The notes: a model not told the origin generated them from the sequence alone. A stretch of 64,000 nt of DNA from an uncultured Verrucomicrobia subdivision 3 bacterium (GCA_903944085.1 CAJAQO010000286.1:11009-75008); one strand, 5' to 3'; numbered from the stretch's first letter, positions 3,465-63,220 are shown. Translations and numbers: made by a program.

Positions 3465-3544
3465 TCTTAATCCTAAGCGTCATCGTAATCTTAATCTGCT
3501 TCAAACCACGATTACGATTAAGAACAAGATTAAGATTAGGATTG
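3465..3544. repeat. inverted pair of short TAATC-type / GATTA-type tandem units (no cargo)
   Basis: Left arm: tcttaatcctaagcg ... cgtaatcttaatct (3465-3497). Right arm: cgattacgattaaga ... agattaagattagg (3509-3540). The arms are reverse complements at 13/15 and 12/14 positions. Intergenic, upstream of the nucleoside hydrolase gene. Confidence 0.7.
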
Positions 3545-3599
3545 CACCGGCGCTCGACGAAAATTGACGCAGCGGCGGTTCCGGCACACAATTCCCGAC

Positions 3600-4643
3600 A
3601 TGTCCGCGCCCGCACTCATCAACTTTTCCGCCGCGTGTTTCTCATCGTGGCGACTCGGTTTCTGTCTCGCCTTGCTCGGCATGGGCTTGGCATTCCCGCC
3701 CGCATCCGCCCGCGCCGCCGAAACCGCCGCCGTCAAGGCCGCTCCCATTCCCGTCATTCTCGACACCGACATCGGCGACGACATTGACGATACTTGGGCG
3801 CTCGCGCTCCTGCTCAAATCTCCCGAACTGGACCTGAAACTCGCGGTGGGCGATTACGGCAAAGCCGAATACCGCGCGCGTTTGCTCGCGAAGTTGCTCG
3901 CACGCTCCGGGCGCGGGGATGTGTCCGTGGGCCTCGGCCTTGATGTCGCGCCGCGCGGCGGGGGCCGGCAGGACGCGTGGGTGAAAGACTACGAACTCAA
4001 ATCCTATCCGGGCAAAGTCTTCACCAACGGAGTGCAGGCCATCATTGACACGATCATGAACTCGCCGCAGCGCGTGACCTTGATCTGCATCGGCCCGGTG
4101 CCGAACATTGCCGCCGCACTGCAACGCGAGCCGCGCATTGCCCGGCACGCGCGCTTCATCGGCATGGACGGCAGCGTGCGCCTGGGTTATGGCGGCGCGC
4201 CGTCGCCTTGCGCAGAATGGAACGTGAAGGCCGATCCGAAATCCTTGCAACAAGTTTTTGCCGCGCCTTGGGACATTACCATCACGCCGCTCGACACCTG
4301 TGGCCGGGTGAGCCTCGCCGGCGAAAAATATCGGCGCGTCCGTGACACGACCGACCGCACCGCCGCCGACGTGATCGCCAACTACCGGCTCTGGCTGGGC
4401 AGCGACCCGGCATCGTCGCCGAACGCTGCCGACCAGCACAGCAGCACCTTGTTTGATCCCGTGGCGGTTTATCTCGCCCTTCAGCCGGAGCTTTGCGTGA
4501 TGGAGCGAATGAACCTTCGCGTCACCGATGAAGGTTTTACCGTCCTGGACCCGCAGGGCAGGCCGGTCAACGTGGCGACGAAATGGAAAGACCTGGGCGC
4601 GTTCGAGGATTTTCTGGTGACCCGCCTGACGGGAAAACCTTGA
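3600..4643 (+). CDS. secreted inosine/uridine-preferring nucleoside hydrolase family protein
   Basis: Signal peptide MSAPALINFSAACFSSWRLGFCLALLGMGLAFPPASARA, then PVILDTDIGDDIDDTWALALLL, the DxDxxxDD motif of the IUNH family. The ORF is open from 3564; ATG 3600 is preferred. Confidence 0.8.
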   Translation: MSAPALINFSAACFSSWRLGFCLALLGMGLAFPPASARAAETAAVKAAPIPVILDTDIGDDIDDTWALALLLKSPELDLKLAVGDYGKAEYRARLLAKLLARSGRGDVSVGLGLDVAPRGGGRQDAWVKDYELKSYPGKVFTNGVQAIIDTIMNSPQRVTLICIGPVPNIAAALQREPRIARHARFIGMDGSVRLGYGGAPSPCAEWNVKADPKSLQQVFAAPWDITITPLDTCGRVSLAGEKYRRVRDTTDRTAADVIANYRLWLGSDPASSPNAADQHSSTLFDPVAVYLALQPELCVMERMNLRVTDEGFTVLDPQGRPVNVATKWKDLGAFEDFLVTRLTGKP

Positions 4644-4887
4644 GGCCCATCAACACTTCCTAAACCGGAATGACGCGGTTGAAAAGTGAAGCGGCGATGC
4701 GCGTAGCTGCGACGCCTCCGTTGCCGAGGGTGCCGGCGACGCCTCATCGCCGACTCCAGCCACCCAACCAAATGGTGGGTTTGGTTTAGCGCGCGATGCG
4801 GGCGTCGCGCCCACTTTCTGCGACGGGGCGTCGCCGCCACGGCCGCCGGCAGCGGCAGCGTTCCGGCTAAAAAGCGATAGTTTTCGG

Positions 4888-4956
4888 GTTCCCGAACCAA
4901 CCGCGCTGGCCCTGGGTGGATTGGGAGCCTTGTTATTGCGGTTCCGTCACTGGCGA
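4888..4956 (+). pseudogene. orphan PEP-CTERM-like sorting-signal remnant
   Basis: Frame 1 reads VPEPTALALGGLGALLLRFRHWR (PEP, hydrophobic helix, Arg-rich). There is no protein-like sequence or ATG upstream (stop at 4687) and no stop directly after the basic cluster. Confidence 0.35.
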
Positions 4957-5157
4957 CATTCTTCGCGGGGGCAAGGAAATCATGAAACCATTTGGCTTTC
5001 TCGACATTTGCCATGGGCGACAGGGAAGTTGTCGCGCCGCGACAAAGAATCCGTGTTTCATCCGTGGCTAAAAACAATTGGTCACCCCGTCCTGCTCCCA
5101 GCCGCCAGGCGCGGGGATGCAAAAACGCCGATTTTTGATGGATGTATATGTTTTTTG

Positions 5158-5500
5158 GACAAAGCCGTTGTTTCGGCAGGCCACTCCGGTGATTTTTTAG
5201 GCTACTCCGTTGCTGCGGATGGCCACTCCGGTAAATTTTTTGACCACTCCGTTGTCGCCGACGACCACTCCGGTGATTTTTCAGCCTGCTCCGGGGAAAT
5301 TTTAGTCCGCTCCATTGTCGCGGATCATCACTCCGGTGAAATTTAAGGCTGCGCCGTTGATTTTGAACGTCGCGCTGTTGCCGCCGATGGTCACTCCCTT
5401 GATTTTGAAGTCCACTCCGTTGATTCCGAAGCCCACTCCGTTGCCGCAAGTGCTTACTCCGTAGCTTCAGAAGGTCACGCCGTTGGCTTGGACGCCCGCA
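5158..5500. repeat. degenerate tandem array of about 16 units of about 21 nt (20-22 nt variants)
   Basis: Units share the core CACTCCGKT, e.g. gccactccggtgattttttag / gctactccgttgctgcggatg / gccactccggtaaattttttga / ccactccgttgtcgccgacga ... gtcacgccgttggcttggac. On the minus strand they read as heptads of the form x-N-G-V-x-F-x, interrupted by stops and frameshifts. Confidence 0.75.
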
Positions 5501-10593: not shown

Positions 10594-10600
10594 GGGAAGA

Positions 10601-10668
10601 ATTTACGATATGCGATTTGCGATTTACGAGCCTTAAATCAGCCGGCGCGTAAATCGTAAATCGAAAAT
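10601..10668. repeat. cargo-less inverted heptamer arrays (ATTTRCG)x4 / (CGTAAAT)x3
   Basis: Left arm: atttacg atatgcg atttgcg atttacg (10601-10628). A 19-nt spacer follows. Right arm: cgtaaat cgtaaat cgaaaat (10648-10668). This fills most of the gap between the TPR-gene stop and the hisI start. Confidence 0.85.
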
Positions 10669-10677
10669 GGTAATCCA

Positions 10678-11769
10678 CTACGGTTTTTGTTCGCGCAACG
10701 GCGGCGGCGCGGCCAGCAAACGAATTGTCTTCGGCGTCGCCACCGGTGGATTGGCGGGCGCGGGCGCGGCATTGGTCGCGGCAGGCAGCGGATTGGTGAC
10801 CACGCTCACACGGTTCGTCACAATCTCGGGAATGGAATTTGTGGGCGGATTTTTGTGGTCGTTCAGGCTGCGAATCAACCGGGTTTTCATGTCGGCAAAA
10901 GCGCGGTTGGTCACGGCGTCGAGCTGCGCCTGCGCTTCGTCGTAAAAGCCGGCGGAGATTTTCACGCGCGCTAGGTGAATGCGCACGCCTTCGCGCTCGT
11001 TGTCATCCTTGGCGATGTTAAATGCATTGGTCCACGCGGCCAGCGCGTCGTTCGTGCGCAGCGGGCGGATGCCGTAATAGCTTTCAGCATAATCCGTCGC
11101 GAGGACGAGATTTTCCGGCGCGAGTTTCATGGCCTGCTGATAAAGCCCCAGCGCCTTGTCGAACACCTGCTGCTCGTTGATGCCGTAAAATTGCTTGGCG
11201 TCGGTGCGATAAAGATAAACGGTCGTGGCGAAATTCTGGTAATAAGTCGGCTCGGTCGGGTCCAGGCGGATGGCTTCGGTGTAATCCGCGAAGGCGTTTG
11301 TCAGCCCGCCATGTTCGCCGAAATAATTGGCCAGCTGATTCCACACGGCGGGATTTTTCGGATCGAGCTGCTTGGAATTTTCGTATTGCACCTTCGCGCC
11401 GTCCTCATCGCCGATGTCGTTCAAAAAGCTGCCGTAGGCGAGAAACCCGCGTGCGTGATCGGGATGATTGCGGAGAAAATTTTCGTAGCCGTGCTTCACC
11501 CCGTCAAACCGCGCGATGATTTTTTGGTTCAGCGCGGCTGTGCCGTTGGTGTCCGTGCGGGGAATCTGGTTGGTGCTGATCCAAGCGTTCACTTCGTCCA
11601 GCGCGGCATCATCGGCGATCATCAGATTGCGCAACTCGCTTTCCACCGGATCGTTGGCAGCCACGATCGGCACCGAGACGCCGGTGTGCTCCTGCACCAG
11701 ATTGCTGACGGCTTGCGGCTGGTTGGTGGCCAGCAGCGCGCTCAAAAGTCCAATGGTCAAATCACTCAC
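10678..11769 (-). CDS. secreted TPR-repeat protein
   Basis: N-terminal hydrophobic signal, then repeated A..Y..A..L.P.N motifs (e.g. AFADYTEAIRLDPTEPTYYQNFA, ALGLYQQAMKLAPEN). Pro/Ala-rich C-terminal tail. Confidence 0.6.
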   Translation of the reverse strand: MSDLTIGLLSALLATNQPQAVSNLVQEHTGVSVPIVAANDPVESELRNLMIADDAALDEVNAWISTNQIPRTDTNGTAALNQKIIARFDGVKHGYENFLRNHPDHARGFLAYGSFLNDIGDEDGAKVQYENSKQLDPKNPAVWNQLANYFGEHGGLTNAFADYTEAIRLDPTEPTYYQNFATTVYLYRTDAKQFYGINEQQVFDKALGLYQQAMKLAPENLVLATDYAESYYGIRPLRTNDALAAWTNAFNIAKDDNEREGVRIHLARVKISAGFYDEAQAQLDAVTNRAFADMKTRLIRSLNDHKNPPTNSIPEIVTNRVSVVTNPLPAATNAAPAPANPPVATPKTIRLLAAPPPLREQKP

Positions 11770-15507: not shown

Positions 15508-15732
15508 GCGCCGTTTTGCGGTGAATAACTCAATGGGTGCAACAGTCGGAAACCTTGATTTTACAAGTGAATCTGAATTATTCATCCGTTGCTCACCGCG
15601 CATTTTTGGTGGATAAGTTGTGCATATCAAATCGTAGGCAAAAACAGGAACTATGATATGATGTTTTCAGTTCATTGAAAGAACGAAGCGGGCAGTGGAA
15701 AGTAAAATTGACGCTGTTCGTTTCAAGATAAT

Positions 15733-16541
15733 CCCAGGCGACTGGGGAAAAGTCAGGTCAGGCTGGTTGATCTGGCTCCTCAAAAACCGGAGCGCAAGTT
15801 TCGGCGAGGCAGAATTCACCAGTTCCTCTGGCGGTGTTCGCACACCGTCACATGCGAATGAGGGACTTGGCGGCGAGGAACGATGAGAAGCCGTTCCAAA
15901 CCGAGTCAAGTATTTCAGGAAAGTTTCGATCCTGAATGAATCGCAGTCACCCAGAGGGTGAACGGTTGCTACTGTGTATCAGCACGGACGGATGACTCTG
16001 GCGGGTTCAAAAATAAAAAGTTGGGACCGCCAAAAGAAAGACGCTGAAAGGCGGGACAAAGGGAGCATTCGAACCGGGAAGACCACGACGGCCAGGCAAG
16101 CCGCGTGAAAAACTTCCGAGCGCCGGCGATGTTAAAAACGACACCGCTGGACTGTGAGATAAAATGCAACTTGAGAGAGCAGAGGCGAGACCCGTGGTTT
16201 TGGGCGAACGCACCGCCAAAAGCGGTGGCTGACCCGGAGCCAGTGGTCAAGACGCGAACAAAAAAATCGCAGGCGTGTCTTGACCTGGTTCGCAGGCCGG
16301 TGGCGCAACCACCAGCCGAAGCGAGCTGAAAAGCCTCACTCAAAATTCGCGCGGCGCAAGCCGCCGGACGGCCCTGCTACGAGGCCGACAACTCCGCTTG
16401 CCGTGGAGAATGGCGTCGGGAAACCAGCAGCCGCTGAAAAGCGTGCGCCAAATGCTGGCACGGGAAAGAGAGCTTGGCGAACTCCCATCCCCCATTTGTC
16501 CCGGTCTGACCGCAAGGTTGGACCGGGACTTATTGTTTTCA
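15733..16541 (+). ncRNA. candidate large structured RNA (family not recognised); boundaries approximate
   Basis: ORF-poor 1.3-kb gap between convergent hisS and acnA. On the + strand there are at least 11 local hairpins, five capped by GNRA or GNRA-like loops: GCGA 15738-41, GCAA 15794-97, CGCAA 16304-08, GCAA 16356-59, GCAA 16512-15. The last is a 14-bp stem followed by a T-rich tail (16499-16541). No covariation evidence is available. Confidence 0.3.
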
Positions 16542-27084: not shown

Positions 27085-27112
27085 CGTAAATCGTAAATCG
27101 TAAATCGCAAAT
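27085..27112. repeat. solo heptamer array (CGTAAAT)x3 + CGCAAAT
   Basis: cgtaaat cgtaaat cgtaaat cgcaaat. The last unit supplies the A and T of the acpS ATG (27111). Same unit as the right arm at 10648-10668. Confidence 0.85.
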
Positions 27113-35133: not shown

Positions 35134-36555
35134 CTAATTGCCCAGCAGCTGCTCGCCAAGCCTCAAAAGTTTCTGCACGGCGGCATCCGATGTCGCCTCG
35201 GCGTAAATGCGCAGCACCGGCTCGGTGCCGGAGCCGCGCAGCATCAGCCACGTCGAATCGGCCGCGACAAATTTCACGCCGTCGCGCGCGTCCACTTTCG
35301 CCAGCGGCGAGCGGAGGAGTTTTTTGGGCGGATTGCTTTTCAGGCGTTCCATGAGCGCGGCGCGTTTTTCCAGCGGATAGTGCGCGTCGAAGCGGGCATA
35401 ACGATGCGGACCAAATTCCTTTTCCAGGCACGCATAAATTTTGTTCACGGAAATTTTTTCCATGGCCAGCATTTCGAGCAGGAACAAGCCGGCCGCCAGC
35501 CCGTCGCGTTCGGGAATGTGATTCGCAAAGCCGACCGAGCCGCTTTCTTCCGCGCCGAACAGCGCGCCGGGCTTCATCAGCTCCGGCGCGATGAAGCGGA
35601 AGCCGATGCCGACTTCCGTGAGCGGCAGATTCCACGCGGCGCACATCTTGTCCACCATCGCGGTAGTATTAAAAGTCTTTGTCACCACGCCGCGATCGCC
35701 GCGATTGCGCACGAGATGATGCAGCAACAGCGCGATGACCTGCTGGTTGGTCAGCGGGCCACCGCGACCGTCCATCGCGCCGATGCGGTCGGAATCGCCG
35801 TCAGTCACGAGGCAAATGTCGTGCGGATTGCGCCGCAACTGCGCGCCACCAAGCGCGTAATTTTTCGGCAACGGTTCCGGGCAGATGCCGCCGAACAGAA
35901 TGTCATGCGCGCCGTTGAGCGTCGTGACGTGGCAAGAAGTTTTGGCGAGCAGCGTTTCAAAGACGCCCGCGCCGACACCAAACAAGGCATCATGCGCCAC
36001 GCGCAATTTTGATTGCGCGATCAACTTGAAATCCACGAGCCGCTTGATGGCGGCGAAGTGCGCGGGGCGGACGTCCAAATTGGCGATTGGCGATTGGCGA
36101 TTGACGATTGATTTGGGAGCGGTTGCGTCCAGAAGTTTTTCCACGGCCTGACATTCTTCCGCGCTGCTGCTGCCGCCGAAATGCGACTTGAGTTTGAAGC
36201 CGTTGAAAATCGGCGGATTATGGCTGGCCGTAATCATCACGCCGCCGACGGCGCCAAGATTTTTTACCGCATAGGAAATGGATGGCGTCGGCGTCGGTTC
36301 CGGCGTGAGCACGACCTTAAAATCATTGCCGGCAAAAACCTCGGCGGTGAGTTGCGCGAAACGGTCGGACAAAAAACGCCGGTCGTAGCCGATGACCACC
36401 TTTGGCTCGCGCCCGAAAATTTCCGATTTCCGATTTCCGATTTCCGATTTCCAAAAATCCGCCGTCGCCTGCGCCACGCGCGCGACGTTGGCAAAAGTAA
36501 AATCTTCCGCGATAACCGCGCGCCAGCCGTCGGTGCCGAATTTGATTTGAGTCAC
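35134..36555 (-). CDS. alpha-D-phosphohexomutase (phosphoglucomutase/phosphomannomutase)
   Basis: FGTDGWRA, ITASHNPPIFNGFK (catalytic Ser loop), VTDGDSDR (Mg site) and GEESG. Carries two translated heptamer arrays (see repeats 36079 and 36421). Confidence 0.85.
   Translation of the reverse strand: MTQIKFGTDGWRAVIAEDFTFANVARVAQATADFWKSEIGNRKSEIFGREPKVVIGYDRRFLSDRFAQLTAEVFAGNDFKVVLTPEPTPTPSISYAVKNLGAVGGVMITASHNPPIFNGFKLKSHFGGSSSAEECQAVEKLLDATAPKSIVNRQSPIANLDVRPAHFAAIKRLVDFKLIAQSKLRVAHDALFGVGAGVFETLLAKTSCHVTTLNGAHDILFGGICPEPLPKNYALGGAQLRRNPHDICLVTDGDSDRIGAMDGRGGPLTNQQVIALLLHHLVRNRGDRGVVTKTFNTTAMVDKMCAAWNLPLTEVGIGFRFIAPELMKPGALFGAEESGSVGFANHIPERDGLAAGLFLLEMLAMEKISVNKIYACLEKEFGPHRYARFDAHYPLEKRAALMERLKSNPPKKLLRSPLAKVDARDGVKFVAADSTWLMLRGSGTEPVLRIYAEATSDAAVQKLLRLGEQLLGN
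36079..36113. repeat. in-frame heptamer array (ATTGGCG)x3 plus 2 degenerate units inside the phosphohexomutase CDS
   Basis: attggcg attggcg attggcg attgacg attgatt, translated on the minus strand as SIVNRQSPIANLD. Confidence 0.85.
36421..36455. repeat. in-frame heptamer array (TTCCGAT)x4 plus 1 degenerate unit inside the phosphohexomutase CDS
   Basis: ttccgat x4 then ttccaaa, translated on the minus strand as WKSEIGNRKSEIF. Confidence 0.85.
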
Positions 36556-44427: not shown

Positions 44428-45144
44428 TTGATTGTTTTCACGCGCGCCGCCGCTTTAATTGTCAGGTCTGTGGCTGAACCCATCGTCAAAATCCGCGAGC
44501 TGACCAAGCTGTATTCCCAAGGCGAAATCCAAGTGACCGCGCTCGACCGCATCACGCTCGACATCGCCGCCGGGGAATTCCTCGCGCTCATGGGACCGTC
44601 CGGCTCCGGCAAATCCACGCTGTTGCACATCATCGCCGGCGTGGACCGCCCGACCAGCGGCCAATGTCTTGTGCAAGGTGTGGATGTGACCAAGCTGAAC
44701 GAATCGGCACTCGCCGACTGGCGCAACCACAATGTCGGCTTCATTTTTCAAACCTTCAATTTGATTCCCGTTTTGACCGCTGCCGAAAATGTGGAACTGC
44801 CGCTGCTGCTCACGCGGTTGAGCCGGACGCAACGTCGCAAGCAAGTTGAAACCGCGCTCGAAGTCGTCGGCCTCGCTGACCGCGCGAAACATTTGCCGCG
44901 CCAGCTTTCCGGCGGACAGGAACAGCGCGTGGCCATCGCCCGCGCGCTCGTGACCGACCCGGCGCTCATCGTCGCCGACGAGCCGACCGGCAATCTCGAT
45001 TCGCACAGCGCGCAAGAAGTTCTTGGAGCGTTGCAATCGCTCCGCAAGGACGCCGGCAAAACCATCATCATGGTCACGCACGATCCGAAAGCGGCGGCGT
45101 TCGGCACGCGGCAAATCCATTTGGAGAAAGGCGAGCTGTCTTGA
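44428..45144 (+). CDS. ABC transporter ATP-binding protein (MacB/LolD type)
   Basis: [11 protein letters not shown] (Walker A), [15 protein letters not shown] and [11 protein letters not shown] (Walker B). Exact start uncertain. Confidence 0.88.
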
Positions 45145-45145
45145 T

Positions 45146-45563
45146 TTCCAATTTTCAATTGCCAATCGCCAATTTGAAATTATGAACGCCGAAGAGATGA
45201 AATTGCGCACGAAAAAATTCGCGCTGCGAATCATGAAGCTGGCGGATTCTTTGCCACGCTCGCCATCGGGTCGAACGTTGGCTGGACAAATTGTGCGGTC
45301 CGGAACTTCTGTAGCGGCCAATTACCGAGCGGCGGGCAAAGGTCGTTCCAAGGCTGAATTCATCGCCAAACTGGGCATTGCCGAGGAAGAAGCCGATGAA
45401 ACTCAATTTTGGCTGGAGTTGATTATCGAGTCTGGAGTGGTGAAAGAAAATTTGATCCAGCCATTATTGCAAGAAGCCCGCGAGTTGACCGCCATCATTG
45501 CCGCCTCGCGGAAATCAACCGCGCAGAATAAATAAATTGGCAATTGGCGATTGAAAATTGGAA
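45146..45563 (+). mobile_element. 418-bp cassette: four-helix-bundle gene bounded by inverted heptamer arrays, inserted at the ATPase/permease junction
   Basis: Left array: ttccaat tttcaat tgccaat cgccaat ttgaaat (45146-45180). Right array: attggca attggcg attgaaa attggaa (45536-45563). The reverse complement of the right array matches the left at 26/28 positions. No transposase is present. Confidence 0.45.
45182..45535 (+). CDS. four-helix-bundle protein (23S rRNA intervening-sequence protein family, TIGR02436/PF05635-like)
   Basis: MNAEEMKLRTKKFALRIMKLADSLP ... GQIVRSGTSVAANYRAAGKGRSKAEFIAKLGIAEEEADETQFWLELI carries the family signature GTS..ANY.EA ... S..(D/E)F..K...A.KEA.ET..WL. Confidence 0.85.
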   Translation: MNAEEMKLRTKKFALRIMKLADSLPRSPSGRTLAGQIVRSGTSVAANYRAAGKGRSKAEFIAKLGIAEEEADETQFWLELIIESGVVKENLIQPLLQEARELTAIIAASRKSTAQNK

Positions 45564-45572
45564 ATACCCGAG

Positions 45573-52721: not shown

Positions 52722-53168
52722 TATTTTCTTAAGTGTTAGGTGTGGCGTTGAAGAAGGCGGCGCGGGCTTTGTAGCGCTGAACCGGGTTTTTTTGATCTCG
52801 GCCTCAATCGCAGCCAATTGGCGCTGATGCTCGATGATTTTATCTGGATCTCCCGCGTCGAATGTTTCGACCAACTCCTCGCGCTATTGCGCCAACCGTT
52901 GCAACTGGTGTTCGGGCGTCTCGCCCGATGATCGAACTGGCGGTGAGACGCCGCCGGCACTCGCCGCCGAGGACGGCCGCGCTACCTTGGCTCCGGTTCA
53001 GGGATGCAAGGCGCGAAATTCGTTCTCGAGAAATTCTTGCGGACACCCTTGCTCGGCACATGGGGGGCGATTGCCCGTCAAGTCAGCCGTGAAGCCAAAG
53101 CCAATTTTTATTTCGCCGCCGGTCGCTTCCTGCTAAAACTTTTGCAGGTGGATTTACCCAAACCAGCC

Positions 53169-56100
53169 ATGTCTCCGGTCACCGGCGAACGCCTCGTGCG
53201 CTTCATCGGCGACAAAATCCTTTTCTCCATCAACGCCGGCAGGAATTTCGCCGCGCCGAAAAACTGGCGCGCGCGACTCCGCACCAATCTCGGCCGCGCC
53301 GCCGCCCGCCGCCAAGAAATCATCTCCGCCCATGCCGGCCGGGCGGTGGTCGCCAATTCCTCCTGGCGGGACGTGCCGATGCAACCAACCGCCGAAGGCT
53401 GGGCCATTGAGCTGCCGCTCGCGGAAGTCGGCTACTTTCAGGCCAAGGCTTACCTGCTCGACGAAAAAAACTGGCAGCACTGGCCCGATGGCGCGGACGC
53501 CGGCATTTCGGTGCATCCGAATTTTGCCCGGACGGCGAACACCCTTTACTGCGCCTTCACCCGGCTTTTCGGGGCGACCAAAAATCTCGCGGCCACCGCC
53601 GATGAAAAATTGGATACGCAGTTGAAATCGCTGGAAGCGCAAGGCTACGCCACGCTGCCGCCGTCGGGCAAATTCCGCGACCTCACGCGGCAGTTGCCCT
53701 TCATCGTCAACCAACTCGGCTGCCGGATCATTCATCTCTTGCCGGTGCATCCGACGCCCACGACCTACGCGCGCTTCGGTCGTTTCGGCAGTCCTTACGC
53801 CGCGCTGGATTTGACGGCGGTTGATCCCGCGCTCGTCGAATTCGACCAATGCACCACCGGTATTGACCAGTTTTGCGAACTAACTTACGCGGCACATTCG
53901 CTCGGCGCGCGCGTGTTCATTGATATCGTCATCAACCACACCGGCTGGGGTTCGAGCTTGCAGGAAAATCACCCGGAGTTTTTCCTGAAAAATCCCGACG
54001 GCTCATTCGCCAGTCCCGGCGCGTGGGGCACGGTCTGGGAAGATTTGGTGGAACTCGAACAGCACAGCGTCAAACTTTGGGATCTCATCGCCGACTCGCT
54101 GCTCGTCTGGTGCCGGCGCGGCGTGGATGGTTTTCGCTGCGACGCCGGCTACAAAATTCCCGCGCCCGCCTGGCAATACATCGTCGCCCGCGTGCAGGAG
54201 GAATTTCCCGAAACCATTTTTCTGCTCGAAGGTCTTGGCGGCTCGTGGGACGCGACGGAACTTTTGCTAACCGAAGGCGGGATGCAATGGGCGTATTCCG
54301 AATTGTTCCAAAATTATTCCGGCAAAGAGGTCGCGTGGTATCTCGACTACGCCAGCCGGCAAAATGAACGCGTCGGCAGCTACGTGAATTATTCCGAAAC
54401 GCACGATAACGACCGTCTCGCGAAAAAAGGCCGCGCCTGGTCGCTCCTGCGAAATCGGCTGTGCGCGCTGACCAGTCCGAGCGGCGGTTTCGGTTTCACC
54501 TGCGGCGTGGAATGGCTGGCGACGGAAAAAATAAAAGTCCACGGCAACACCGGCCTGAACTGGGACGCCGCCGAAAACATCGTGCCCGAACTCGCGCAGC
54601 TCAACCAGCTCGTCGCCGATCATCCATGCTTTTTCGACGGCGCAAGACTCACGCGCCTGAGTGCGCCCGATTCACCAGTTTACGCGCTGCTCCGCGAATC
54701 CGCCGAAGGCAAGGATTTCGTTTTAATTTTGGTCAACACGGAGCTGGAAAATCCAAACGCGCTGACGCTCGAAGTTTCCGCTTTCCACTTTCCGCTTTCC
54801 GCTTTTGCGTTTGATTTGCTCGGCCAGCCGCTCCCGAAAATTTCCGCCACCAAAAACGAAATCGCGTTCACACTTCCGCCGGGCGCAGTCTTCTGCCTCG
54901 CGCCGACCGAGAAACCTGCCGGTTTGAGCGGCGATAATTACCGCCGTGTCCGCGCGCAAGCCGCCTGGGCCTTGGAATCATTGAATAAAATCGTTGCCGC
55001 CGAAACCATTGACGGCCTCGACTGGCTGTGGCTCGCGGCGCAGGTTGAATCGTCGCCGAAAAATTTTCTCGCCGCTGCCAGCGAATTCGCCGCGCGCGAA
55101 GCCAAAACTTCGCTCGCCGATTTGTTGGCTGAAGTCAGCGCCGGAAAGGTTTTTCCCCGCGTGGTCGAATGGACATTGCTGGATGCCCGCCGCGTCACGC
55201 TCGTGCCGCCCGGTCATTGGCTGCTGATTGAAGATTCCGCGCCGTTCCGGGCCGAATTGCGAAGTCAGAAGCCAGAAGTCAGAAGTCAGAATGAAACTGC
55301 GGTCACGTGCCACATCCAGTCCATCGCCGTCGGCGACCGGCACATCGCAACATTTGCGCCGCGCGATACAACGGCCGAATCCAATTTAATTGTGGAACGC
55401 TACGCGACCACTTCGCCAAAAGTTTCCGCCGCCATTCGTTTTCTTTCCGCCAATCCGCAATCCGCAATCCGCAATCCGCAATCCGGCGACCTGGTTTTAT
55501 TGACGAATGGTATCGGCGGCATGGCGCGGCTGTGCGTGGACCTGGGCCGCATAAATTCCAAATACGACTGCGCGCTCGGCGCAAATCTGAATCCCGCCGT
55601 GCCGGTGGACCGCCACGTTTTGGTGAAGCGAATCCGCGCCTGGGTGAATGCGGACGGTTTTCTGTCGCCGTTGGATTTCAAAAATCTCGCGTCGTTCCAG
55701 CCCGGCTCGCCGGCCGTCTGGAATTTTGTGGCGAACGCCGGCGACGGCCGCACGGTGGAAATTGAACTGCGCGCGGAAATGCTCGACGGCAAAAACACCA
55801 CCGTTTTTTACTTTCGCCGGCCCACGGAAAAACTCGCACAGGGAAAACAGTTGCCTGCCGACGCCGATGTGCGCTTGACCGTGCGCGTGGACATCGAAGA
55901 CCGGAATTTTCACAGCGAAACCAAACGCAACAGCGGCGCGGATTTCCATTTCGCGTCGAATTGCCATCCGATTGGTAGCAGCCGACGTGAGGAGGCTCAT
56001 TCTAAAAAGGCGCAAGGCGGAAGGCAGAAGGCGGAAATTAATTTGAGCCTCGTCACCTCGGCTGCTACAGAATTATTAACGGGCTTCATCTTCACGCCCG

Positions 56101-57587
56101 CCCCTGACCGCCAGTTGCGCGTCTTTGCCGACGCCGGCGAATATCATCCGCAGCCAGAGTGGTGCGAAAACATTCCGCATCCGGTCGAGCAGACGCGCGG
56201 CCAAACCGGCAGCGGCGATGCCTACAGCCCCGGCTGGTTTGAAATTCCGCTCGCAAAAGGCACCGAGGCAACGCTGGTGCTGACGGCGGAAACGGAGCAA
56301 AGCAAAAGCGGAAAGCGGAAAGCGGAAAGCGGAAAGGCAGAAGCCAATTTTGAAGCGCAACTTGCACGCGCGGCGAAACAATTCGTCGTGCGCCGCGATG
56401 AGGGCAAAACGGTCATCGCCGGCTACCCGTGGTTTCTCGACTGGGGTCGCGATTCGCTGATTTGTGCGCGCGGGCTTTTAGCCGCCGGCATGGTTGACGA
56501 GGTGAGGCAGCTTTTGCTCACGTTCGCCAAATTTGAAAAAGACGGCACGCTGCCCAACACGATTCACGGCAACGACGTTTCCAACCGCGACACGTCGGAT
56601 GCACCGCTGTGGTTCGCGGTCGTGTGCGAAGAAATTTCCAAGATTAAAAATCCGAAATTAAAAACCAAAGATTTTTACGCGACGCTGGTGGATGAAAATG
56701 GCCGCACCCTCCGCGACGTGCTCGCGAGCATCGCCGAAAACTACGCCAAAGGCACGCCGAACGGCATCCGCATGGACGCCGATTCCGCGCTCATCTGGAG
56801 TCCGAGCCATTTCACCTGGATGGACACGAATTTTCCCGCCGGCACGCCGCGCGAAGGTTATCCCGTCGAAATTCAAGTGCTGTGGATTCGCCTGCTGCGG
56901 CTGCTGGCAACTATTTCCGCCAAGACCGATCAAAAGAAATGGCAGGATCTCGCCGAACACGCGCTGGCCTCGTTTGAAAAACTTTTCTGGCTCGAAAATA
57001 AAGGCTGGTTTGCCGACGTGTTGATCGCCAAATCAAATGTCATCGCGCGCGACGCCGCGGCGAGCGATGCATTGCGCAGCAATTGTCTTTTCGCCGTCAG
57101 CCTCGGCCTCGTCACCGGCGAACGCGCGAAACGCTGCGTCGCGGCGGCGCAAAAATATCTCGTCGTGCCGGGCGCGCTGCGCTCGCTCGCACCGCTGCCG
57201 GTGGCCGTGCCGCTGCCGATTTTCAGCAACGACGGACGGCTGATCAACAATCCGCCGGAGCCGTATTGGCCGCGTTACGAAGGCGATGAGGACACGCGCC
57301 GCAAGCCCGCGTATCACAACGGCACGGCGTGGACGTGGACGTTTCCCAGCTTTTGTGAGGCGATCGTGCGTGCATGGGATTTTTCGCCGGCAGCCGTGGT
57401 GGCGGCAAAAGCGCATTTAGTCAGCGCGGAAAAAATTCTGAATGAAGGCTGCCTCGGACAAATCCCGGAAATTCTCGACGGCGACGCGCCGCACACGCAG
57501 CGCGGCTGCGATGCGCAGGCGTGGGGTGTGACCGAAACGCTACGCGTGTGGAAAATGTTGAATTCGCACGCTGCGCAGGCAAAATGA
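53169..57587 (+). CDS. bifunctional-looking GH13 alpha-amylase-family domain + glycogen-debranching amylo-alpha-1,6-glucosidase (GDE_N/GDE_C) fusion
   Basis: GH13 regions: FIDIVINHTG, DGFRCDAGYK, FLLEGLG and YSETHDND. The central part LLTNGIGGMARL ... DRHVLV is GDE_N-like. The C-terminal part is GYPWFLDWGRDSLICARGLL ... YHNGTAWTWTFPSF ... CDAQAWG (GDE_C). The ORF is open from 53004; ATG 53169 is preferred. It contains five translated repeat insertions. Confidence 0.8.
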   Translation: MSPVTGERLVRFIGDKILFSINAGRNFAAPKNWRARLRTNLGRAAARRQEIISAHAGRAVVANSSWRDVPMQPTAEGWAIELPLAEVGYFQAKAYLLDEKNWQHWPDGADAGISVHPNFARTANTLYCAFTRLFGATKNLAATADEKLDTQLKSLEAQGYATLPPSGKFRDLTRQLPFIVNQLGCRIIHLLPVHPTPTTYARFGRFGSPYAALDLTAVDPALVEFDQCTTGIDQFCELTYAAHSLGARVFIDIVINHTGWGSSLQENHPEFFLKNPDGSFASPGAWGTVWEDLVELEQHSVKLWDLIADSLLVWCRRGVDGFRCDAGYKIPAPAWQYIVARVQEEFPETIFLLEGLGGSWDATELLLTEGGMQWAYSELFQNYSGKEVAWYLDYASRQNERVGSYVNYSETHDNDRLAKKGRAWSLLRNRLCALTSPSGGFGFTCGVEWLATEKIKVHGNTGLNWDAAENIVPELAQLNQLVADHPCFFDGARLTRLSAPDSPVYALLRESAEGKDFVLILVNTELENPNALTLEVSAFHFPLSAFAFDLLGQPLPKISATKNEIAFTLPPGAVFCLAPTEKPAGLSGDNYRRVRAQAAWALESLNKIVAAETIDGLDWLWLAAQVESSPKNFLAAASEFAAREAKTSLADLLAEVSAGKVFPRVVEWTLLDARRVTLVPPGHWLLIEDSAPFRAELRSQKPEVRSQNETAVTCHIQSIAVGDRHIATFAPRDTTAESNLIVERYATTSPKVSAAIRFLSANPQSAIRNPQSGDLVLLTNGIGGMARLCVDLGRINSKYDCALGANLNPAVPVDRHVLVKRIRAWVNADGFLSPLDFKNLASFQPGSPAVWNFVANAGDGRTVEIELRAEMLDGKNTTVFYFRRPTEKLAQGKQLPADADVRLTVRVDIEDRNFHSETKRNSGADFHFASNCHPIGSSRREEAHSKKAQGGRQKAEINLSLVTSAATELLTGFIFTPAPDRQLRVFADAGEYHPQPEWCENIPHPVEQTRGQTGSGDAYSPGWFEIPLAKGTEATLVLTAETEQSKSGKRKAESGKAEANFEAQLARAAKQFVVRRDEGKTVIAGYPWFLDWGRDSLICARGLLAAGMVDEVRQLLLTFAKFEKDGTLPNTIHGNDVSNRDTSDAPLWFAVVCEEISKIKNPKLKTKDFYATLVDENGRTLRDVLASIAENYAKGTPNGIRMDADSALIWSPSHFTWMDTNFPAGTPREGYPVEIQVLWIRLLRLLATISAKTDQKKWQDLAEHALASFEKLFWLENKGWFADVLIAKSNVIARDAAASDALRSNCLFAVSLGLVTGERAKRCVAAAQKYLVVPGALRSLAPLPVAVPLPIFSNDGRLINNPPEPYWPRYEGDEDTRRKPAYHNGTAWTWTFPSFCEAIVRAWDFSPAAVVAAKAHLVSAEKILNEGCLGQIPEILDGDAPHTQRGCDAQAWGVTETLRVWKMLNSHAAQAK
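54775..54816. repeat. in-frame heptamer array (TTTCCGC-type, 6 units)
   Basis: tttccgc tttccac tttccgc tttccgc ttttgcg tttgatt, translated as VSAFHFPLSAFAFD. Confidence 0.85.
55261..55295. repeat. in-frame heptamer array (GAAGTCA-type, 5 units)
   Basis: gaagtca gaagcca gaagtca gaagtca gaatgaa, translated as RSQKPEVRSQNE. Confidence 0.85.
55451..55485. repeat. in-frame heptamer array (CAATCCG)x5
   Basis: Five perfect copies of caatccg, translated as ANPQSAIRNPQSG. Confidence 0.9.
55975..56068. repeat. 94-nt in-frame palindromic element: 25-nt terminal inverted repeats around an (AAGGCGG)x4 array
   Basis: The left arm gtagcagccgacgtgaggaggctca (55975-55999) and the right arm tgagcctcgtcacctcggctgctac (56044-56068) are complementary at 23/25 positions. 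Inside lies aaggcgc aaggcgg aaggcag aaggcgg (56007-56034). Translated as SSRREEAHSKKAQGGRQKAEINLSLVTSAAT. Confidence 0.85.
56305..56339. repeat. in-frame heptamer array (AAAGCGG)x4 plus degenerate unit
   Basis: aaagcgg x4 then aaaggca, translated as KSGKRKAESGKA. Confidence 0.9.
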
Positions 57588-59865: not shown

Positions 59866-60405
59866 TTATTTGTTCGTTTGGGCCAAGATAATGTCAGCCG
59901 CCTCGCCCAGATTGCGAGCGGAAAAATCAGGTTTCTGCTTCAACTCCTCGGCATACCCACGATCAATAAAAATTGTTTTACAGTCCGCCGCATGGCCGCA
60001 ATCCACATCGCGCCAGCGGTCGCCGACCATCCAGCTTTGCGCGAGATCAATGCCAAGTTCACGCGCGGCGCGCAGCAACATGCCGGGTTTGGGTTTGCGG
60101 CAATCGCAGTCGGACAAACCTTTGCCGGCGTGAAAACAAACTTCGACGCGATCAATCGGCAGTTGCGCCAGCATGTGCGCGTGAATTTTTTCGACGACTT
60201 CCTGCTTCAATGTGCCACGGCCGACATCCGGCTGGTTCGTGGCCACCACCAATAAAAATCCGGCGGCTTTCAGTTTGGCACACGCGGCGGGAACTTCGGG
60301 AAGAATTTCAAATTCGGCGAGGCTCGTCGGCGGATATGGCTTGGATTCCTTTTCCAACGCACGATTAATCACACCATCGCGATCGAGAAAAACCGCGCGA
60401 CGCAT
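59866..60405 (-). CDS. gmhB: D-glycero-D-manno-heptose 1,7-bisphosphate phosphatase (HAD-IIIA)
   Basis: MRRAVFLDRDGVIN, VVATNQPDVGRG, CDCRKPKPGML and MVGDRWRDVDCG. The track ORF extends to 60570 through the repeat and into gmhA; ATG 60405 is preferred. Confidence 0.85.
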   Translation of the reverse strand: MRRAVFLDRDGVINRALEKESKPYPPTSLAEFEILPEVPAACAKLKAAGFLLVVATNQPDVGRGTLKQEVVEKIHAHMLAQLPIDRVEVCFHAGKGLSDCDCRKPKPGMLLRAARELGIDLAQSWMVGDRWRDVDCGHAADCKTIFIDRGYAEELKQKPDFSARNLGEAADIILAQTNK

Positions 60406-60434
60406 TTCCGCTTTCCGCTTTCCGCTTTCCGCTT
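60405..60434. repeat. solo heptamer array (TTTCCGC)x4 filling the whole gmhA-gmhB spacer
   Basis: The coding strand reads TAA-aa-gcggaaa-gcggaaa-gcggaaa-gcggaaA-TG. The array runs from the gmhA stop directly into the gmhB ATG. Confidence 0.9.
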
Positions 60435-61031
60435 TTACTTCGTGCTTTCCCATTTGGTCTGGGCAACTTTCAATTTCGGATGCGACACGAACAAATGCCA
60501 GATGACGCCTTGAAACGCCTCGCTGTGCGGCGTGACGTGCGTGGGATTCACCGTCGGGACGATTACGCACGCGGTCGCCTGCTGCGCCGTGTAACCGCCA
60601 TCGCGGCCGACGATGCCGACCACCGAGGCCCCGACCGATTTGGCCACCTGAATCGCGCTGACGAGATTGGGGCTGACATTTTTTTCAAGGTTGCCGCCGC
60701 CAACCGAAAAAATCAGGAGTCCGTCCTGCGCATTGATGCGACTGCCCTTCAACCATTCGGAAAAAACCGTCGCCCAGCCTTCGTCATTCGTGCGCGCCGT
60801 GAGTTCGGAAACATTGTCCGTGGGCGCGTAAGCCTCAAAGCCGCAGATTTTGCGGAAATCATTCACCGCATGGCCGGCGTTGCCTGCGCTGCCGCCCACG
60901 CCGAGGATGAACAGCCGTCCGCCGCGCGCGCGGATGGCGGCCAGTTCGTCCGCGCATTTTTCAATGGCCGCTTCGTCGAGTTGGGCCGTGATCTGCTGCG
61001 CTTCGGCGAGAAATTGTCTGGTAAAACTCAT
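60435..61031 (-). CDS. gmhA: SIS-domain sedoheptulose-7-phosphate isomerase
   Basis: RLFILGVGGSAGNAGHAVNDF ... LLIFSVGGG ... VVGIVGRDGG; context with gmhB, hddA and hddC. Confidence 0.8.
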   Translation of the reverse strand: MSFTRQFLAEAQQITAQLDEAAIEKCADELAAIRARGGRLFILGVGGSAGNAGHAVNDFRKICGFEAYAPTDNVSELTARTNDEGWATVFSEWLKGSRINAQDGLLIFSVGGGNLEKNVSPNLVSAIQVAKSVGASVVGIVGRDGGYTAQQATACVIVPTVNPTHVTPHSEAFQGVIWHLFVSHPKLKVAQTKWESTK

Positions 61032-61076
61032 GGAAATTTCAAATTACGAATTTTTAATGCCGATTGAAAGCAGAGT

Positions 61077-61787
61077 TTATCGCGGCTTCAAAATTGTTTC
61101 CAACTCCGCCAAACCCGCCGGCGAACCCATTTCGTAAAATCGCTCCAGCACTTCGTAGCCGGCCAGTTGCTTTTCGCGGACGAGCCGGCCCATGACTTCG
61201 GCGAGATCAAAAACCTGGTCGGCGGCATACGCATCAAACACCGACGACTTGAACAGGCTCAAGCCGTAGTCAATGTGCCGCATTTCGGGTAGCTTCTGTT
61301 TTTTGTCGTAGATTTTTATTTCGCCGTCGGCAAAAACCACATTGCTCGCGTCATATTTGCCGTCATTGCGATAAACCGTCATTAGGCCGAGCTTGCCGCT
61401 GCGATGAAAGGTTTCCGCGACGGGCGCGTAAGGAATCGGCAGATACGAATCGCCGTAGAGAATAAAAAACTCTTCGCCCAGCTTGGGCAGCGCGCGCTTG
61501 ATCGCGCCGCCGGTGCCGAGCAATTTTTCGCCGTCGAAGGAATAATCGAGCTGGATGCCGAACGCTTCGTTGCCAAATTCGCGCTGAATCATTTCGCCAA
61601 GAAAGCCGATGCACAAAACGACGCGGCGAATGCCGCGCGCGTGGAGCATTTCCAATTGGTGCGCGAGAAACGGCCGCCCCGCGACCGGCACAAGCGACTT
61701 GGGAATTTTTTCCGTGATGGGCCGCAACCGCGTGGCGAGTCCGCCCGCGAGAATGGCGACGGGAATGTTTTCCTGCGTGACGCTCAC
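61077..61787 (-). CDS. hddC: sugar-1-phosphate nucleotidyltransferase (D-glycero-alpha-D-manno-heptose-1-P guanylyltransferase-like)
   Basis: VAILAGGLATRLRPITEKIPKSLVPVAGRPFL. GTG start overlaps the hddA stop (GTGA). Confidence 0.75.
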   Translation of the reverse strand: MSVTQENIPVAILAGGLATRLRPITEKIPKSLVPVAGRPFLAHQLEMLHARGIRRVVLCIGFLGEMIQREFGNEAFGIQLDYSFDGEKLLGTGGAIKRALPKLGEEFFILYGDSYLPIPYAPVAETFHRSGKLGLMTVYRNDGKYDASNVVFADGEIKIYDKKQKLPEMRHIDYGLSLFKSSVFDAYAADQVFDLAEVMGRLVREKQLAGYEVLERFYEMGSPAGLAELETILKPR

Positions 61788-62764
61788 GAGATCACCAGTT
61801 TCGTGCCCTCGAAATCAAATCGGAAGCGCACTTCCTTCAAACCGCTTTGGCGCATCGCGTGACGCAGCTTCGCCTTGGCTTCCGCGTAAAACATCAGGAA
61901 GCCGCCACCGCCCGCGCCGATGAGCTTGCCGCCGAGCGCGCCGTTGGCCAGCGCGAGGTCATACCATTCGTTAATTTTCGGATTGCTCATGCCGCCGCTG
62001 CGCTGTTTTTTGCGCTGCCAGTGGACATCCATCAGCCGCGCGAATTCGTGCAGATTGCCCGATTCCAGCGCGGCTTTGCTTTGCAGACCGAGATCCTTGA
62101 CGAAGTGCAAATTCTCAATCATGGACTTGTCGTCCGCTTTGGATTTGGTGTCCTGTTCCTTCAGAATCGCCGAGGCGCTGCGCGAATAGCCGGTGAAAAA
62201 CAACAGCAGATTATCTTCCAGATTGTCGCGCGTCTCATCGGAAACTTTCAGCGGCCACGCCTCCACTTTTCCGCCTGGCAAAAAGTTGAAGCACGTCAAA
62301 CCGCCGAACGCGGCGATGTATTGGTCCTGCTTGCCGATGGGTTCGTGCAGGCGGTTCAATTCGATGTCGCACGCTTGTTCGGCGAGTTCGGCGGGATGAA
62401 TGAGATCCTTTTTTTGCGCGTGCAAGGCTTTCAGCAACGCCGTCGTGAAACTGCCGGAAGAACCCAGACCGGTGCCGGACGGGATGTCCGCCATCGAGGT
62501 CAGCTCCAGCCCTTGCCCGTCGAGGCCAACGAGATCAAATGCCTCACGAATGATGGGATGCTCGACCTTGGCGGCGCTTTCGACCCGCTCCAGCCGCGAG
62601 TATTTGACAATCAGGTCAGGCGTGAAGTTTTCGTGCAACGTGATGTAAACGTAGCGGTCAATCGCCCCGGCGATGAGAAAGCCGCCGAACTTTTCGTAAT
62701 ACGACGGCAAATCCGTGCCGCCGCCGCCGAGCGAAATGCGCAAGGGTGAACGGGCAATGATCAT
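61784..62764 (-). CDS. hddA: GHMP-family sugar kinase (D-glycero-alpha-D-manno-heptose-7-P kinase-like)
   Basis: MIIARSPLRISLGGGGTDLPSYY ... DIPSGTGLGSSGSFT ... GKLIGAGGGGFLMF. Confidence 0.8.
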   Translation of the reverse strand: MIIARSPLRISLGGGGTDLPSYYEKFGGFLIAGAIDRYVYITLHENFTPDLIVKYSRLERVESAAKVEHPIIREAFDLVGLDGQGLELTSMADIPSGTGLGSSGSFTTALLKALHAQKKDLIHPAELAEQACDIELNRLHEPIGKQDQYIAAFGGLTCFNFLPGGKVEAWPLKVSDETRDNLEDNLLLFFTGYSRSASAILKEQDTKSKADDKSMIENLHFVKDLGLQSKAALESGNLHEFARLMDVHWQRKKQRSGGMSNPKINEWYDLALANGALGGKLIGAGGGGFLMFYAEAKAKLRHAMRQSGLKEVRFRFDFEGTKLVIS

Positions 62765-62768
62765 AAGC

Positions 62769-63220
62769 AAAAGCGGAAAGCGGAAAGCGGAAAGCGGAAA
62801 CTCCCGCGACTACGGTTAAATTTCGTTCTCATAAAATTTTCTTCGTTTTGCGGCCAATGGTAATCAAAATTGCCAGTAATTGACCAGACTCGTCCAGCAG
62901 TTCAGCGATTTGTGCTTCAGATCCAAGACCAGTATCCTGGCAAATTTCCAACCAATAAACCGTCTCGGCGGCTTCCTTTTCCGCCACACCGATTTTGTGA
63001 ACGAAATCGCTTTTGGATTCGGTGCGATTCGCTTCTCGGTAGTTTGCCCCGATTGAAGTGCCAGCCTTAAGCAATTGCCGTCCGATAATTTGTCCCTCGG
63101 CGTTTTTGGGAAAAGCCGCAACCGTTTTGACCACTTGCACGGCAAACTTTCGCGTCCGTTCTTCCAATTCGGTTCGCATACAAATTCAATTTCCGCTTTC
63201 CGCTTTCCGCTTTCCGCTTT
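62769..63220 (-). mobile_element. 452-bp cassette: four-helix-bundle gene bounded by a perfect 31-nt inverted repeat made of GCGGAAA heptamers
   Basis: aaagcggaaagcggaaagcggaaagcggaaa (62770-62800) is the exact reverse complement of tttccgctttccgctttccgctttccgcttt (63190-63220). It sits between the oxidoreductase 3' end and the hddA ATG. No transposase is present. Confidence 0.45.
62829..63179 (-). CDS. four-helix-bundle protein (23S rRNA intervening-sequence protein family)
   Basis: MRTELEERTRKFAVQVVKTVAAFP ... GRQLLKAGTSIGANYREANRTESKSDFVHKIGVAEKEAAETVYWLEI, the same signature as the 45182 gene. Confidence 0.85.
   Translation of the reverse strand: MRTELEERTRKFAVQVVKTVAAFPKNAEGQIIGRQLLKAGTSIGANYREANRTESKSDFVHKIGVAEKEAAETVYWLEICQDTGLGSEAQIAELLDESGQLLAILITIGRKTKKIL

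Follow-up and report, generated by a model that had tools for sequence, protein, structure and literature searches.

STRR (short tandemly repeated repetitive) heptanucleotide repeats have been known in cyanobacteria since about 1990. To our knowledge, heptamer repeats have no agreed origin or function, and we know of no role outside diversity-generating retroelements (DGRs) for PF05635/TIGR02436, a large family of four-helix-bundle proteins represented by two crystal structures. Both orphans meet in the DNA described here, a 64,000-nucleotide stretch (hereafter, the window) from an uncultured Verrucomicrobia subdivision 3 bacterium (GCA_903944085.1, CAJAQO010000286.1:11009-75008; 57% G+C), in which short arrays of tandem 7-nt units recur between and within genes and bracket, as inverted pairs, two PF05635 genes. 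The window matches a lake-metagenome metagenome-assembled genome (MAG), GCA_903944655.1. For the cyanobacterial repeats, the functions proposed so far are transcript stability or translational coupling (PMC2670836). A 2007 report of heptamer over-representation in bacteria is cited in PMC4692102, the paper in which Rehm et al. (2015) describe the G-rich heptamers of Xanthomonas and Nostoc. These heptamers are transcribed, include about 70 inverted pairs and keep their positions between species (PMC4692102).

The arrays of the window are confined to a single period. Perfect arrays of at least three copies number eight at period 7 and zero at each of periods 4-6 and 8-15, and a mismatch-tolerant scan finds ten at period 7 and none at any other. 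Fifty dinucleotide-preserving shuffles of the window yielded no array of any period. An earlier note on this DNA, made from the sequence, had named neighbouring periods and shuffled controls as the comparison on which its proposal should stand or fall, and the excess of period 7 survives both. Tandem Repeats Finder (TRF) returns 15 period-7 arrays of at least seven unit types, each of which was read in context, in agreement with the roughly 15 loci and at least seven types listed in that note. A typical array is a module of ∼31 nt, or 4.4 units of 7 nt. The heptad arrays are a real and strongly non-random feature of this DNA.

Two of the inverted pairs enclose a gene. IVP1 (62829-63179, minus strand; 116 aa) separates the GFO_IDH gene of a sugar-nucleotide operon from its GHMP-kinase gene, and IVP2 (45182-45535, plus strand; 117 aa) lies between an ABC-ATPase gene and an FtsX-permease gene; they are the only PF05635 genes in the window. 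IVP1 scores 77.5 bits against the Pfam profile (cut-off 33.8; E 1e-21) and 91.8 bits against TIGR02436 (cut-off 24), while IVP2 scores 66.4 and 90.3 bits, respectively. IVP1 also matches PDB entry 2RLD (E 4e-18), and entry 2GSC is likewise a sequence match to a PF05635-family query. Profile searches gave no Y1_Tnp match to either IVP gene. The arms of IVP1 are perfect 31-nt arrays on the plus strand, AAAGCGG ×4.4 downstream of the gene (62770-62800; TTTCCGC in the mRNA sense) and TTTCCGC ×4.4 upstream of it (63190-63220). Together they form a 33-bp terminal stem, and the whole 471-nt region folds with a z-score of -5.3. The downstream arm ends 5 nt before the GHMP-kinase ATG, and the upstream array encodes the final 11 residues (qsgkrkaesgn) of the GFO_IDH_MocA open reading frame (ORF). 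The arms of IVP2, at 45144-45175 and 45534-45565 (both plus strand; ×4.6 with 76% matches by TRF), consist of mixed heptads, those of the downstream arm being of AAATTGG type; they form a stem of ∼38 bp, and the 441-nt region folds with a z-score of -4.4. Both stems thus close the PF05635 ORF as a loop. In the comparison loci fetched for this analysis, which carry L-numbers as labels, L090-L092 differ from the window by a compensatory AGAGCGG/CCGCTCT change in both arms. IVP1-like genes (65-100% identity) at other operon junctions retain arms of AAAGCGG type.

This architecture extends well beyond the Verrucomicrobia. A tblastn search with IVP1 against 72,556 plasmids returned 31 records, mostly from Nostocales and other cyanobacteria, and only two PF05635 matches were found among phage records. 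Inverted heptamer arrays surround five of the first six plasmid genes (two in Nostoc punctiforme and one each in N. flagelliforme, Planktothrix and Chlorohelix), each with a unit of its own; the sixth, from Anabaena cylindrica, has a clear array downstream only and a degenerate upstream arm. Periods 5, 6 and 8-10 are not represented by any array at those six loci. Eight further plasmid genes are mostly alike (Bernardetia, Chondrinema, Monoglobus, Treponema, Gloeocapsa, Pseudanabaena, Euhalothece and a second Chlorohelix plasmid), and inspection of the sequences themselves showed arrays in plasmids from Nostoc, Planktothrix, Gloeocapsa, Euhalothece, Chlorohelix, Bernardetia and Treponema. When the 100-nt flanks of 25 PF05635 genes are matched against themselves, the mean self-match peaks at lag 7 (0.445) and lag 14 (0.413), as compared with ∼0.27 at other lags and 0.255 at lag 7 in control windows. 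The best lag is 7 or 14 for 20 of these 25 genes and for 13 of 16 independent homologs on IMG/VR contigs; by our own tally, about 25 of 31 independent genes remain once orthologs and duplicates are removed from the two sets together. Inverted heptad-periodic flanks are typical of PF05635 genes in most of the cases examined, from Verrucomicrobiota, Cyanobacteriota, Chloroflexota, Bacteroidota and Spirochaetota to IMG/VR contigs. A shared "AA + 5" pattern of the units was considered and discarded, being broken by the cyanobacterial units GGGTGTG and GTCGGAG.

Published work contains two further cases. The Coxiella 23S rRNA intervening sequence (IVS) has three or four GACAGAT heptamers ahead of its S23p ORF, with RNase III cleavage at the first of these repeats (PMC4990558). 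Xanthomonas campestris carries abundant GGGAATC arrays, one of which, no. 15 in the list of Rehm et al., separates bccP from XCC0516 and extends over the start of the latter; it is given there as an entry in a supplementary table, with no comment on the gene family (PMC4692102). XCC0516 is the protein of PDB entry 2GSC and matches the PF05635 profile (E 2e-14). The earlier note held that STRRs are not known to flank four-helix-bundle genes. No published statement of a link between STRRs and PF05635 was found in the limited literature searched, so that novelty is not proven; the genes themselves tell otherwise, as PF05635 genes on cyanobacterial plasmids are so flanked. The coupling of arrays and PF05635 across phyla appears to be previously undescribed. 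As a separate observation, at plasmid loci L097, L099, L100, L102, L103, L105, L106 and L108 the PF05635 gene sits between two adjacent genes of related function that belong to a single operon or system, frequently one of defence. The neighbour pairs include cas2/cas1, csx2/cas1, hsdS/hsdR, DUF1156/Swt1-HEPN, helicase/N6-methylase and RND adaptor/permease.

Besides the gene-bracketing pairs (45144/45534 and 62770/63190), the window holds arrays in each of the three other settings that had been described for it, namely a cargo-less inverted pair, solo intergenic arrays and in-frame arrays within coding sequences (CDSs). The cargo-less pair consists of ATTTACG ×4.1 (10601-10629) and CGTAAAT ×3.7 (10648-10673), both by TRF, and forms a hairpin (10601-10673, minus strand) that separates the stop codon of a TPR gene from the hisI start; the 10595-10680 region folds with a dG of -26 kcal/mol and a z-score of -3.5. 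One solo array, CGTAAAT ×4.0 (27085-27112, plus strand), runs into the ATG of acpS (at 27111), with a TAA in each of the three frames just before it; since 7 is not divisible by 3, any heptamer array that contains a stop codon blocks translation in every frame. Intragenic arrays use only units without a stop in any frame. The other solo array, a perfect TTTCCGC ×4.4 (60405-60435, plus strand), occupies the spacer between the stop of a SIS-domain gene and the start of a HAD-phosphatase gene. Solo AAAGCGG arrays, at 31-32 nt, have the size of the IVP1 arms.

The in-frame arrays are found in three genes. The 1527-aa glycogen-debranching-type (GDE) gene (53004-57587) contains five, all plus strand: TTTCCGC ×4.4 (54775-54805) at orthologous site ∼591; GAAGTCA ×4.4 (55261-55291) at site ∼753; CAATCCG ×5.6 (55446-55485; TRF unit TCCGCAA) at site ∼817; AAGGCGG ×4.3 (56007-56036), in the loop of a ∼95-nt palindromic element (55975-56068); and AAAGCGG ×4.6 (56299-56336; 56305-56336 by TRF) at site ∼1101. 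The first is complementary to the array at 56305-56336. As a general rule, such complementarity of sites 591 and 1101 was rejected, since it is true in the window, L024 and L033 and false in L015, L018, L026 and L032. The minus-strand PGM/PMM-family CDS contains two, listed on the plus strand as ATTGGCG ×4.6 (36079-36111; site B, sense CCAATCG) and ATTTCCG ×4.9 (36419-36452; site A, sense GGAAATC). The remaining one is the array at the 3′ end of the GFO_IDH gene. An ATTGGCG type had been assigned to 36079, 45146 and 45536; it fits the first of these, whereas the arrays at 45144 and 45534 are mixtures of units such as ATTTCCA, ATTTTCA, ATTGCCA and ATCGCCA.

The excess of period 7 recurs in related genomes, which the earlier note had proposed to scan. 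Two sets were assembled: 80 loci orthologous to the GDE protein (1.49 Mb), and, independently, the surroundings of the PGM/PMM-family gene in 80 metagenome loci (0.82 Mb). Most GDE-set loci are labelled Verrucomicrobia subdivision 3, Limisphaerales or Verrucomicrobiia, and the note's view that this genome is not cyanobacterial agrees with the Verrucomicrobia subdivision 3 and Limisphaerales labels of the orthologous loci. Counting perfect arrays with three or more copies, the GDE set has 83 at period 7, seven at period 5, four at period 6 and at most one at each of periods 8-15; the PGM set has 43 at period 7, at most five at periods 5-6 and at most one at periods 8-15. Period 4, for which a 12-nt array suffices and chance arrays come more easily, gives 31 and 18, respectively. 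Array length peaks at 31-33 nt both inside and outside CDSs, with a range of 22-38 nt and a single outlier of 112 nt at a contig end.

Within genes, the site of an array is fixed and its unit is rewritten. Taken together, the arrays keep to orthologous sites in species with 63-91% protein identity. GDE arrays occupy six fixed positions in species that share 63-85% protein identity, the heptamer changing from one species to the next; among the units seen at site 591 are TTTCCGC, ATTTCAA, TCCGAAC, CGCAATC, AAAATTC and AAATCCG. PGM site A measures 72 nt in 71 of 77 loci and ranges from perfect arrays to decayed ones, with units such as GGAAATC, GAAATCC, GAAATCA, AAGTCCA and AGAAGTC. PGM site B has more than 10 units, and in array-bearing species an ancestral 84-nt segment has been replaced by the array. 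From species to species, the units found at a given orthologous site are connected through 1-nt changes. The peptides encoded are partly conserved, as in KSEIxNxKSEI at PGM site A and F(K/R)F(Q/P)(I/L)S at GDE site 591. An array-bearing allele is exactly 21 nt longer than one without: 63 against 42 nt at GDE site 753, whose short form retains AATGCAGAATG, ∼1.6 units; 72 against 51 nt at GDE site 591; and 29 against 8 nt in the non-coding SIS/HAD spacer. A 21-nt block duplication is visible in L139. Synteny at the acpS-leader and ABC/FtsX (IVP2) junctions is not kept in the second locus set. The behaviour of these coding genes, with sites fixed and units rewritten, appears to be previously undescribed. 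In L009, L022 and L030, a short GC-rich hairpin is nested in the AAAGCGG array at GDE site ∼1101 and splits it. A similar nesting of small dispersed repeats in Nostoc heptamer repeats was reportedly described by Elhai et al. in 2008.

Units are also shared among the sites of one genome. Different sites carry an identical unit in 14.6% of comparisons within genomes and in 2.6% between genomes; the within-genome share was reached in 0 of 2000 permutations. ACGCATC occurs at three sites in L019, AACTCCG at three sites in L044, and two different sites in L020 have identical 33-mers with the same alternating variant units. These twin 33-mers point to copying of whole arrays. The claim that the length of these arrays is conserved while their sequence is not is borne out for period and length, as the unit varies; it needs tempering for sequence, as orthologous units lie 1-nt steps apart and units are shared within a genome. 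On the scale of strains, the arrays are stable. Eight strain contigs at 99.66-99.91% identity (11.2 kb; eight arrays) differ by 62 SNPs and no indels, and the four SNPs that fall within arrays, all point changes, compare with 1.46 expected (p 0.058). Comparing copy number between strains, as the earlier note had advised for the detection of slippage, turned up no change. With no indels among eight strains, the arrays are not hypermutable contingency tracts.

The observations to be accounted for comprise the specificity for period 7, the ∼31-nt module, the stems of the cassettes, the persistence of sites, the turnover of units, the 21-nt steps, the sharing of units and the association with a gene. 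The reading towards which we lean is that STRR-type arrays are the dispersed-repeat part of a family of IVS-like cassettes built around PF05635 genes. Each PF05635 gene of the window is flanked by two inverted ∼31-nt modules whose stem closes the ORF as a loop, and the same module also occurs as cargo-less hairpins, as single copies in operon junctions and 5′ leaders, and as in-frame copies in hypervariable segments of proteins that tolerate insertions. Slipped-strand gain and loss would proceed in 7-nt steps, of which only net 21-nt changes could survive within genes, so that an in-gene array might cycle between collapse to ∼1.5 units and re-expansion to ∼4.5. Template switching or gene conversion could further copy whole arrays from one site of a genome to another; judging from sequence comparison, we infer that slippage and inter-site copying together drive the turnover of units. 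Complementary arrays in one transcript would form a long perfect helix that could act as an RNase III-type processing or stability element, and by analogy with 23S IVSs this is the most likely role of the paired arrays. A cut of this type would free the PF05635 cistron from its polycistronic mRNA and divide operons into segments. For solo and in-frame copies, the probable status is for the most part that of tolerated passengers or spacers.

Several results weigh against this cassette reading. The unit at GDE site 753 matches conserved local coding sequence (E-M-Q/R-N) that the most distant orthologs have too; this fits birth in place by slippage with no need of a cassette. The majority of arrays stand alone, with no complementary counterpart on their transcript. 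Across 40 cassettes, sense and antisense flank pairing (18 versus 22) and G-U pairs (357 versus 395) reveal no strand bias, in a noisy test in which the 150-nt flank duplex fold over-pairs; without such a bias, a role at the RNA level is not favoured over a palindrome acting at the DNA level. The best lag is neither 7 nor 14 in four of 14 plasmid genes (Anabaena, one of the two Chlorohelix genes, Monoglobus and Gloeocapsa), three of 16 IMG/VR loci, representing two distinct genes, lack a peak at these lags, and one gene (no. 1 of L089) has flanks nearer to period 8. Arrays of 12-15 units in Bernardetia and Euhalothece show that an upper limit of ∼5 units is not universal, and PF05635 contains no known catalytic motif.

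A more speculative possibility concerns the protein itself, as the leading candidate to recognize the arrays. Both PF05635 crystal entries, 2RLD and 2GSC, contain five chains, and five units of 7 nt make 35 nt, the upper array length in this lineage. The related DGR accessory protein Avd is reportedly a pentamer. In its full form, which we consider unlikely, the proposal is that PF05635 proteins are sequence-specific binders of heptad arrays, that a pentamer reads up to five units, and that with host enzymes it drives the copying, homogenization or processing of arrays genome-wide, as a REP/RAYT-like (repetitive extragenic palindrome and its associated tyrosine transposase) or TRAP-like system found in many phyla. 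Each PF05635 paralog would then be matched to the unit of its own flanks. In keeping with this proposal, numerous PF05635 paralogs go together with numerous units in Nostoc and in this verrucomicrobium, and Xanthomonas has one dominant unit family, abutted by the one PF05635-type gene known to us there.

The main rival to the cassette reading holds that the arrays are neutral heptamer microsatellites, born from a 7-nt slippage bias of the replicative polymerase, and that PF05635 genes or their cassettes, encoding a protein unrelated to the arrays, landed secondarily and by preference in the loops of hairpins formed by pre-existing inverted arrays, much as IVSs reside in the loops of rRNA helices. 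The polymerase-bias hypothesis is that of Mrazek and colleagues, as quoted in PMC4692102, where heptamer over-representation in many bacteria and the idea of a polymerase footprint are already in print. Much of what is seen within genes suits this account: units match the local ancestral sequence, "empty" alleles keep ∼1.5 units, and block duplications of 7, 14 and 21 nt are visible (L124, L135, L111 and L139). Solo arrays are, moreover, far more numerous than cassettes. A general polymerase bias fits poorly, however, with an excess that is lineage-specific, being absent from most distant verrucomicrobial orthologs and, in the case of Xanthomonas, reported absent from other gamma-proteobacteria (PMC4692102). 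Nor does it predict the sharp ∼31-nt length peak outside genes, the lack of indels among eight strains, the units and in one case whole variant patterns common to different sites of one genome, or the IVP lineages that take their own unit to new sites. We regard this rival as possible but doubtful.

Far less probable is a regulatory role of the arrays as non-B DNA or G-quadruplexes, which has been proposed for GGGAATC in Xanthomonas and GGGGAYT in Nostoc. The arrays do share the architecture of those repeats (about four units, solo or in inverted pairs, at conserved positions; PMC4692102), yet runs of three or more Gs are missing from every unit in the window, which makes a G-quadruplex impossible for most arrays. 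Phase variation, in which gain and loss of units would switch genes on and off, has its model in the heptanucleotide tracts of Haemophilus, and a 7-nt unit does shift the reading frame; it is largely refuted here and hardly credible, as copy number is equal at all eight arrays of the eight strain contigs, the ORF stays open in ∼160 orthologous loci with in-frame arrays, and the genes encode housekeeping enzymes rather than surface structures. Selection at the protein level for peptide repeats or linkers can draw on the partial conservation of the encoded peptides but is refuted as the primary cause and scarcely worth entertaining, since a 7-nt period cycles through three frames, 31 nt hold only 1.5 copies of a 7-residue peptide and identical arrays occupy non-coding spacers and leaders; selection only filters for stop-free units in CDSs.

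Sites that accept heptad arrays also accept other repeats. The array at 60405-60435 exactly fills the spacer between the SIS stop and the HAD start, 29 nt as against 8 nt in array-free species, and other species have at this junction a PF05635 cassette with degenerate-heptad arms, a gene-free cassette shell or a ∼95-nt palindromic element. This dispersed palindrome (GTAGCAGCCGACGTGAGGAGGCTC ... reverse complement) is found at the junction in L018, L034, L038, L049, L069, L076 and L085 and has matches in 15 fetched loci. Its copy in the window (dG -53 kcal/mol, z -6) is an in-frame insertion in the GDE gene and carries a heptad array in its loop. Other small palindromes lie in frame at GDE site ∼1101 and PGM site B (L034-L088 and L122-L187), and palindromes encode peptides such as GVQALACD..TLKRELQ, SGHPLP..GEGRGEG and ERRSPTR..HAGPEAG. 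Hypervariable protein segments are landing pads for several repeat classes. A repeat with a ∼10-nt period (ATCCGTGTCC ATCTGTGTCC ATCCGTGG and complement) forms intergenic insertions in several species, including the L038, L055 and L068 junctions.

Three other features of the window stand apart from the heptads. The element at 3465-3544, which had been placed in the family as a looser TAATC-type pair, holds no heptamer array. It is a degenerate inverted pair of period 6 (TCTTAA/GATTAA, 74-78% matches) that forms a hairpin in the spacer between a response-regulator and a nucleoside-hydrolase gene, and is at most a relative of the heptad family. An ORF without a Pfam match (4481-5449, minus strand) contains tandem repeats of 42 nt ×3.4 (5151-5293) and 21 nt ×2.5 (5392-5443), and is probably a repetitive protein with no relation to the heptads. 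A full-length match to the MISL RNA (RF03079) lies at 15726-16485 on the plus strand (606 bits versus a gathering score of 275; E 1e-183).

These results bring together two orphans, heptad arrays and PF05635, that are physically coupled in at least five of the phyla examined and, according to published tables, in Coxiella and Xanthomonas as well. The coupling reduces both problems to a single testable question: does the protein bind, process or propagate the arrays? If the protein is indeed a binder, the lineage-limited excess of heptamers would be explained and an orphan Avd-related family would gain a function. The in-frame arrays offer a rare, clean case of concerted repeat evolution in coding sequence of an essential type, with site and length fixed and the unit rewritten. 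On a practical level, arrays and cassettes split or extend the ORFs called in MAGs. One public assembly has the GDE gene as two ORFs of 887 and 640 aa, possibly through a frameshift or assembly difference, and HAD and GFO ORFs are extended.

The nearest described analogue of these arrays is the cyanobacterial STRR, as the earlier note had proposed. Like STRRs, or heptameric simple sequence repeats more generally, the arrays show an excess of period 7, several unit types per genome, few units per array and hairpin-forming inverted pairs between the genes of operons. STRRs were described for heterocystous cyanobacteria, whereas the present arrays belong to Verrucomicrobia subdivision 3; a restriction of heptamers to cyanobacteria was already outdated, because Xanthomonas has them. 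What goes beyond described STRRs is the presence of in-frame arrays at conserved protein sites, the turnover of units at fixed sites and the link to a gene. The G-rich heptamers of Xanthomonas and Nostoc (Rehm et al. 2015, PMC4692102) are similar in that they mostly comprise four units, occur solo or as inverted pairs and are in some cases intragenic. They differ in that Xanthomonas has one unit family (GGGANTN), read as a G-quadruplex former, in place of at least seven unit types without G-runs. The 23S rRNA IVSs of Coxiella and Leptospira share with the cassettes a PF05635 protein whose ORF lies within complementary, stem-forming ends (33 and ∼38 bp here); excision by RNase III is documented for Coxiella alone. 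The cassettes, in contrast, lie between protein-coding genes of operons rather than in 23S helix 25 or 45, and the window contains no rRNA.

Other systems resemble the arrays or the cassettes in part. As in REP/REPIN-RAYT systems, one gene is set between inverted repeats that are also dispersed as singlets and hairpin doublets. RAYTs, however, are HUH/Y1 tyrosine transposases and PF05635 proteins are four-helix bundles of 116 aa, while REPs are palindromes rather than tandem heptads. Rickettsia palindromic elements are, like the present arrays, small repeats inserted in frame at tolerated positions of protein genes, and differ in being palindromic, ∼100-150 nt long and conserved in sequence. 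Each RAYT lineage has its own repeat sequence (PMC3116915). Avd, the DGR accessory protein, has a fold homologous to that of PF05635 (PMC10053308). The neighbours of the cassettes are sugar-nucleotide enzymes and ABC-transporter genes, and no reverse transcriptase is among the genes adjoining either one, a statement confined to these neighbours because a window-wide reverse transcriptase scan and a search for template and variable repeats were not made; at the cassettes, the locus is thus not a DGR. Set against these systems, the heptad arrays are a new lineage of the known STRR-type repeat class.

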